DNA from: Escherichia phage ECML-606-1
Sequence record: OL631484.1
DNA: 64,000 nt
Direction: 5' to 3' (one strand)
The position numbers were made by a program, and so were the translations under genes. The notes beneath the pieces were generated by a model. That model saw only the letters and a program-made list of their open reading frames with translations, ran no database searches and had not been told where the DNA came from. Below are positions 55,692 through 55,717 of this stretch, one piece after another (the stretch's first letter is position 1; each line of letters begins with the position of its first letter).

Positions 55692-55717
55692 TATATTATT
55701 ACGTCATGGGTGACGTG

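Follow-up and report, generated by a model that had tools for sequence, protein, structure and literature searches.

Promoter-like sequences in the early region of Escherichia phage ECML-606-1 contain a 16-bp dyad, ACGTCA-N4-TGACGT. On balance, these dyads are probably operators for a dimeric phage repressor that overlap host-type (sigma70-like) early or middle promoters, and the most likely binder is a 120-aa phage protein of the XRE type, named XRE120 here. We analysed a stretch of 64,000 nucleotides of this phage (sequence record OL631484.1), hereafter the window, and describe how strongly the motif is enriched, where it lies in promoter-like sequence and how it is conserved across relatives. 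A palindromic operator overlapping a promoter is a textbook principle, which has not been described before for this phage group; we found no paper on transcription or promoters in the group.

The phage and its relatives

The phage looks like a virulent myovirus of about 95 kb without an RNA polymerase of its own. Enterobacter phage phiT5282EW (PQ352032, 95.5 kb), whose genes are almost all annotated as 'hypothetical', shares 97% identity with the window. PHROG and Pfam scans identify a myovirus by its portal, large terminase, major head protein, sheath and tail fibres. Relatives at the protein level are Yersinia phage fHe-Yen8-01, with a capsid identity of 80% and a GC content of 47% against 56%, Aeromonas phage ST4, Bordetella phage PHB04 and Pseudomonas phages Dolphis and Jeremy. 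As the minus strand carries most genes of the window, all sites are read on this strand. No integrase homolog was found in the window, phiT5282EW or the Yersinia phage, representative genomes held no prophage copies of the enterobacterial members, and the window has no plasmid match; ST4 and PHB04 are annotated with integrases. These absences led us to reject a phage-plasmid or temperate lifestyle for the enterobacterial members and, there being neither a linked integrase or lysogeny module nor a prophage, to set aside a reading of the dyads as the immunity operators of a temperate phage.

A late motif at 53765 precedes the gene at 46959-53732 (minus strand). The 2257-aa product of this gene has an Alt-like ADP-ribosyltransferase domain (PF03496, phrog_802) at its C-terminus; its counterpart in the Yersinia phage is annotated as a virion-associated toxin. 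A gap of about 1.07 kb without long ORFs (37679-38751) contains tRNA-like sequence by eye, and phiT5282EW has an annotated tRNA-Asn at the matching place. Past the end of the window, a 495-bp AT-rich non-coding region of PQ352032 (76990-77484) holds about ten CTGTCAC/GTGACAG repeats and short AT-rich tandem repeats, and looks like an origin with iterons. Its analogue in ST4 is 845 bp long and has GCTACC repeats.

A dyad enriched in non-coding sequence

The original prediction placed ACGTCA/TGACGT elements near 34496, 45587, 55697, 57473 and 59529, upstream of minus-strand genes. When the sites are aligned along the gene (minus) strand, the true unit is seen to be the 16-bp dyad, with an extended form that is an 18-bp palindrome, tACGTCA-N4-TGACGTa. 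The hexamer ACGTCA alone is modestly enriched (45 copies against 25.7 expected). Neither this hexamer nor the 11-mer GCATGACGTAT, searched with 2 mismatches, is more than weakly enriched as a unit, and their copies fall mostly in coding sequence; the dyad replaced both. Counted with a tolerated G/C variant at arm position 4, as ACG(T/G)CA-N4-TG(A/C)CGT, the window has five dyads (45591-45606, 55701-55716, 57470-57485, 57502-57517 and 59535-59550), all of them intergenic and, as proposed, upstream of the named minus-strand genes. The copy at 55701-55716 is perfect and gives on the plus strand exactly the inverted repeat that had been reported, ACGTCA-tggg-TGACGT; the copy at 57502-57517 is weaker. 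Dyads lie near four of the five places, and the remaining one falls out of the family:

34496-34506, minus strand: lone half-site GCATGACGTAT, not a member; contains the stop codon of the gene at 34501-35604

No -10 box lies at a suitable distance from this half-site, a late-type promoter (34470-34491) adjoins it, and the Yersinia phage lacks it at the orthologous position.

With at most one mismatch, three dyads are observed in the window against 0.10 expected and, with at most two, 11 against 1.7; none of 200 dinucleotide shuffles reaches either count. A lack of enrichment in intergenic regions had been named beforehand as a refuting outcome, and the counts speak against it. In the 54-kb early half of PQ352032, at up to one mismatch to ACGKCA-N4-TGMCGT, 10 of the 11 dyads lie wholly within the non-coding 6.1% of the sequence (binomial p = 7e-12), and the eleventh overlaps the end of a gene. 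When IMG/VR was scanned for exact matches to TACGTCA-N4-TGACGTA, the result was single hits at chance level, plus two contigs with two copies (L023 and L057); in L023, the copies are iterons in the coding region of a replication-type gene, and it was discarded. Among the single hits and L023, there was no further phage group with the dyad at several promoters.

Promoters that carry the dyad

Four of the five window dyads fill the spacer of a sigma70-like promoter on the gene strand. The boxes of these promoters resemble TTGACA and TATAAT, are 16-17 bp apart, within the 16-18 bp usual for such promoters, and lie upstream of a gene (TTGACA-17-TAATAT, TTGACC-17-TATTAT, TTGCAT-16-TATCAT and TTGATG-16-AATAAT). 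The fifth dyad (57502) is located 32 bp upstream of the 57470 copy and, since its own -35 box is poor, is probably an auxiliary operator. The features are:

55716-55721, minus strand: P55 -35 box TTGACA, overlapping the TGA stop of the upstream gene (55718-56128)
55701-55716: P55 dyad ACGTCA-CCCA-TGACGT, a perfect palindrome filling the spacer
55693-55698, minus strand: P55 -10 box TAATAT, 17-bp spacer
55444-55662, minus strand: gene downstream of P55, 72 aa, ParE-like toxin domain (PF24732, E 1.8e-16)
45586-45614, minus strand: P45 promoter, -35 box TTGACC (45609-45614), -10 box TATTAT (45586-45591), 17-bp spacer
45591-45606: P45 dyad ACGGCACGCATGACGT, inside the P45 spacer region
45121-45549, minus strand: 142-aa gene driven by P45
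57465-57492, minus strand: P57b promoter, -35 box TTGCAT (57487-57492), -10 box TATCAT (57465-57470), 16-bp spacer
57470-57485: P57b dyad ACGTCACGCATAACGT
57502-57517: upstream dyad GCGTCAGCAGTGGCGT, 32 bp centre-to-centre from the P57b dyad
57092-57388, minus strand: 98-aa gene driven by P57b
59528-59555, minus strand: P59a promoter, -35 box TTGATG (59550-59555), -10 box AATAAT (59528-59533), 16-bp spacer
59535-59550: P59a dyad GCGTCACGTATGCCGT
59497-59525, minus strand: P59b, a dyad-less tandem promoter with a Yersinia ortholog; TTGCGT, 17 bp (CAAAAAAGA-type spacer), TAAAGT
59068-59469, minus strand: 133-aa gene driven by P59b

Three of the dyad sites are among the top matches to the sigma70 consensus in 44-64 kb, on the gene strand. 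The fourth site (TTGCAT-16-TATCAT) and the sites in phiT5282EW have the same layout as those three, and further dyads of PQ352032, at 63716, 66844, 69528, 80149 and 81061, show the same arrangement. The original prediction had left a choice between operator sites and early or middle promoter elements, and both would fit, with four of the five dyads in sigma70-like promoters and an anatomy like that of an operator (see below). It had also kept the elements apart from the late motif, and these promoters do differ from GTCGTGA.

The late-type motif, on the minus strand, reads GTCGTGA-yGnCAnnAT and is followed by CAT(G) about 21-23 nt later. Its first bases on this strand are at 53765, 37674/37666, 34491, 33085, 27270, 16326, 13769 and 7559, and it is conserved in fHe-Yen8-01, ST4 and PHB04. 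In the 27270 copy, the CATG provides the start codon (ATG at 27248), a sign that late mRNAs may be leaderless; in the 34491 copy, a mini-ORF of 2 codons begins there.

A second recurring motif, CAAAAAAGA(T/G), is found at dyad-less promoters of both the Enterobacter and the Yersinia phages, within the spacer or directly upstream of the -35 box (window 59503-59519 and about 62880-62900; Yersinia record about 72320 and about 74740, or L005 about 22320 and about 24740). The leaders that follow the promoters (window 45550-45585; phiT5282EW 63666-63746 and 81644-81714) have a C/A-rich stretch resembling AACCCAACC before the Shine-Dalgarno sequence. This stretch is flanked by a CCTCA...TGAGG pairing and occurs in the Yersinia phage too. 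The fold of the P45 leader is weak (dG -4.4, z -0.6).

Terminator-like hairpins at P55 and P59b

At two promoters, a GC-rich stem-loop is located directly before a U-run, as in intrinsic terminators:

55668-55692, minus strand: P55 terminator-like hairpin, dG -16.4 kcal/mol, z -5.7, then U6 and AUG
59474-59501, minus strand: P59b terminator-like hairpin, dG -15.2 kcal/mol, z -5.6, then U7 and AUG

The 5' arm of the P55 hairpin starts 0-1 nt after the -10 box, while that of the P59b hairpin takes in the -10 box of P59b; in both, the 5' arm would precede the start site, and the Shine-Dalgarno sequence is within the 3' arm. Read-through RNA would be terminated here, or its ribosome site would be hidden, and RNA started at the promoter, which would lack the 5' arm, would escape both. 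P55 and P59b could thus each be described as a promoter nested in an intrinsic terminator.

Anatomy of the dyad

In the 11 copies of phiT5282EW, the information content is concentrated in two 7-bp arms, TACGTCA and TGACGTA, the centres of which are 11 bp apart, and the middle is almost uninformative. An operator is marked by dyad symmetry, by a variable centre and by a spacing of about 10-11 bp between the half-sites, all of which are seen here. The dyads also overlap the core promoter or the start site in a variable register to the hexamers, and it is the sequence of the half-sites, not their pairing, that is conserved across copies and relatives. The -35 box is offset from the dyad by -1 to +2 bp; where it is close, the -10 box shifts downstream, so that the spacer stays at 16-17 bp. 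In a relative, one conserved dyad instead follows the -10 box and covers the expected start, just ahead of the Shine-Dalgarno sequence of a DUF7696 gene.

The distance from the -10 box to the right arm is fixed in 8 of the 10 spacer copies. Dyad positions 16-17 double as bases 1 and 2 of the -10 box, so the promoter itself accounts for some of the conservation. The fixed distance would suit a second explanation, in which the arms are read by a phage-modified RNA polymerase, through an injected Alt-like ADP-ribosyltransferase or a MotA/AsiA-like co-activator, and define a class of middle promoters. The 2257-aa protein with its Alt-like domain is encoded by this phage, and T4 early promoters likewise have conserved positions outside the hexamers. 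We consider a promoter class of this kind unlikely, because the -35 and -10 boxes, with spacers of 16-17 bp, are already near consensus, and because the dyad is symmetric whereas polymerase contacts are asymmetric. In addition, the dyad slides relative to the -35 box and is also found downstream of a -10 box, and it is missing from PHB04 and from ST4, although ST4 also encodes an Alt-like ADP-ribosyltransferase.

Conservation across relatives

Three orthologous promoters of fHe-Yen8-01, which belong to the homologs of the 142-, 72- and 133-aa genes, keep the arms ACGTC...GACGT with at most one base changed; their centres and flanks differ from those of the window. At a fourth Yersinia ortholog, the promoter of the 98-aa gene, one arm only is kept. 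Contigs of closer relatives from IMG/VR and Logan have a perfect dyad as their 59.5-kb copy, despite different flanks. The centre TAATCC is common to several of the Yersinia copies, which partly fits a recent duplication of a promoter cassette, and in the window a longer block, GCGTCA-N4-TGnCGTAAATAATnCTTGCrT, is shared at 57.5 and 59.5 kb. On this evidence, the dyad could have no separate function and simply mark one promoter cassette that was duplicated and spread within the genome. Such an origin is improbable as the whole explanation: among the 11 copies of phiT5282EW the arms and the promoter hexamers alone are conserved, and not the centre or the flanks; the arms persist across lineages of different GC content while the flanks diverge; and a copy that is degenerate in the window is perfect in relatives.

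In the promoter contexts of ST4 and PHB04, the dyad is absent and the late motif GTCGTGA is kept. Upstream of the p142 homolog of ST4, at the place orthologous to P45, there is a sigma70-like promoter without a dyad. Together with the absence of the dyad from both phages, this indicates that the promoters are older and that the dyad is a clade-specific overlay. ST4 has early-region motifs of its own: several genes are preceded by GGGCGC-N4-GGGGCGC, a direct repeat, and a promoter spacer contains a palindrome, CTCAnATTTGAG; these motifs are located at L006 1518-1686, 6173-6278 and 12480-12639 and at L007 36956-37115. Their placement suggests that a different regulator may act in the same role in ST4.

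The dyad is restricted to members that infect Enterobacterales (Enterobacter, Yersinia and close relatives) and is missing in the Aeromonas and Bordetella phages, a distribution that would also be expected if it were the site of a borrowed host transcription factor, a dimeric enterobacterial regulator coupling early transcription to host physiology. No enterobacterial regulator is known to have the site ACGTCA-N4-TGACGT. CRP has the consensus TGTGA-N6-TCACA and FNR the consensus TTGAT-N4-ATCAA, and the dyad matches neither type. Moreover, the single hits and L023 from the IMG/VR scan brought up no further phage group with the dyad at several promoters, and a clade-specific phage HTH protein accounts for the same distribution, so that a host factor is decidedly improbable. 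A structural or modification signal, either an RNA or DNA hairpin or, given the two ACGT cores of the dyad, a target of a phage DNA methyltransferase, is very improbable indeed: the phage has several methyltransferases (a ParB-N6/N4 methyltransferase fusion at 59552-61063, MT-A70 and others) and read-through RNA would hold a 6-bp stem with a 4-nt loop, but the arms decay independently within one site (for example, ACGGCA with TGACGT) and without compensatory substitutions, so that pairing is not what is conserved, the dyad is upstream of the expected start of RNA begun at these promoters, and ACGT is frequent in coding sequence, the full dyad alone being confined to promoters.

Candidate regulators

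For a repressor that binds the dyads as operators, XRE120 is the best candidate. This HTH_3/XRE (Cro/C1-type) protein is encoded outside the window, at 66441-66803 of PQ352032, and is the sole clear HTH protein among about 80 early-region proteins scanned with Pfam. Its HTH_3 match is marginal (24.0 bits against a gathering cutoff of 23), its PDB matches to Xre regulators are weak (E 0.05), and the AlphaFold2 model of a homolog is too poor to use (pLDDT 57.5). The gene is located directly behind a dyad promoter, as it also is in relatives with 69% and 56% protein identity, and its promoter bears the dyad in every relative in which the promoter is readable. From this position, XRE120 would be autoregulated. 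The homologs are confined to this clade, and their predicted recognition helix, (H/Y)TLR(N/A)YQRKE, hardly varies, even in the Yersinia ortholog with its 36-38% identity. ST4 and PHB04 have neither XRE120 nor the dyad, and retain the late motif. The proposed link between XRE120 and the dyad depends on where the gene lies, on a comparison of few lineages and on a Pfam score that narrowly passes its cutoff, and many early proteins without a known fold could be alternative binders. The binding of a protein, its identity, the sign of the regulation and its timing are what we infer here from sequence. In the Yersinia phage, XRE120 is annotated as 'particle associated'.

The regulator named in the original prediction, the 180-aa protein of 61056-61598, has an N-terminus that is HTH-like by eye. 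It has no match to a Pfam HTH family, a weak small-terminase-like (terS) PHROG hit and a PDB hit to TraM with an E of 0.38. Because its ortholog is present in ST4, which is without the dyad, this protein was ranked below XRE120 as a binder. Two other candidates, an HU-like protein and a 113-aa protein with a weak HTH, were rejected, as both also occur in ST4; HU-family proteins are not known to read short palindromes. The HU-like protein (3330-3605, plus strand; 91 aa, HU/IHF family, PF00216, E 1.6e-29) is kept in the Yersinia phage and ST4, and recalls TF1 of phage SPO1.

Discussion

The dyads would work as operators in the following way. Host RNA polymerase would start early transcription at the strong dyad-bearing promoters. 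A dimer of the XRE type, made from one of these promoters, would accumulate and bind the operators in the spacers or over the start sites, and there would be about 11-15 such operators per genome, five of them in the window, all bound by this one dimeric phage protein. As binding would block RNA polymerase, the promoters would be shut off together once the protein has accumulated, and the outcome would be negative feedback and a switch from early to later transcription. More tentatively, a single XRE-type repressor may be a genome-wide timer of early genes that acts through about a dozen operators, in combination with the terminator-nested promoters P55 and P59b. If so, the timer and the nested promoters would give compact, insulated and self-limiting transcription units. 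As a further stretch, the Yersinia annotation 'particle associated' hints that the repressor could be carried in the virion.

The annotation of this phage group (phiT5282EW, fHe-Yen8-01, ECML-606-1, ST4, PHB04 and Dolphis) is almost entirely 'hypothetical'. The present analysis offers a first regulatory map of the group, with early promoters, a shared operator and a candidate regulator. It sets a clade-specific layer of early control apart from the late promoter motif, which is conserved across the whole group. It also provides probes for EMSA and reporter assays, and strong, probably co-repressible promoter parts for Enterobacterales.

Several known systems resemble this arrangement in part. 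The likeness to T4 early promoters lies in strong promoters for host RNA polymerase in a lytic myovirus, in conserved bases outside the hexamers and in an injected Alt-like ADP-ribosyltransferase. The additional bases of T4 are asymmetric (UP-like elements and spacer bases), while those found here form a movable palindrome. The controller (C) proteins of restriction-modification systems are small HTH_3 proteins; each binds a C-box, a dyad at the -35 region or the spacer of the promoter that drives it, and gives delayed feedback. The genome of this phage is rich in methyltransferases. Unlike C-boxes, which occur once per system and are of the GACT-N3-AGTC type, the dyads are found at many unrelated promoters, with no linked restriction gene.

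In structure, the dyads are like the operators of the XRE HTH proteins Cro and CI of lambdoid phages (lambda, 434 and P22), which are dyads of 14-18 bp with half-sites one helical turn apart. Those operators also overlap the -35/-10 region, and the promoter of the small HTH dimer itself bears an operator, as does that of the candidate binder here. The tripartite OR/OL switch of the lambdoid phages is missing from this phage, as are an integrase and any sign of lysogeny. Its operators would number about 11-15 copies over an early region of about 40 kb, in contrast to two clusters, and their sequence, tACGTCA-N4-TGACGTa, is unrelated. The distribution of one short site at many promoters across a replicon is closer to the operators of P1 C1, the conserved inverted repeats of phiC31, the stoperators of L5 and the KorA/KorB sites of RK2, in each of which one regulator serves many dispersed promoter sites. 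The sites of P1 and L5 are asymmetric, whereas those of this phage are palindromic. P1, phiC31 and L5 are temperate and RK2 is a plasmid, and their repressors maintain lysogeny or control plasmid genes. Since the phage described here looks virulent, the likely role of its operators would instead be a timed shut-off of the early genes.
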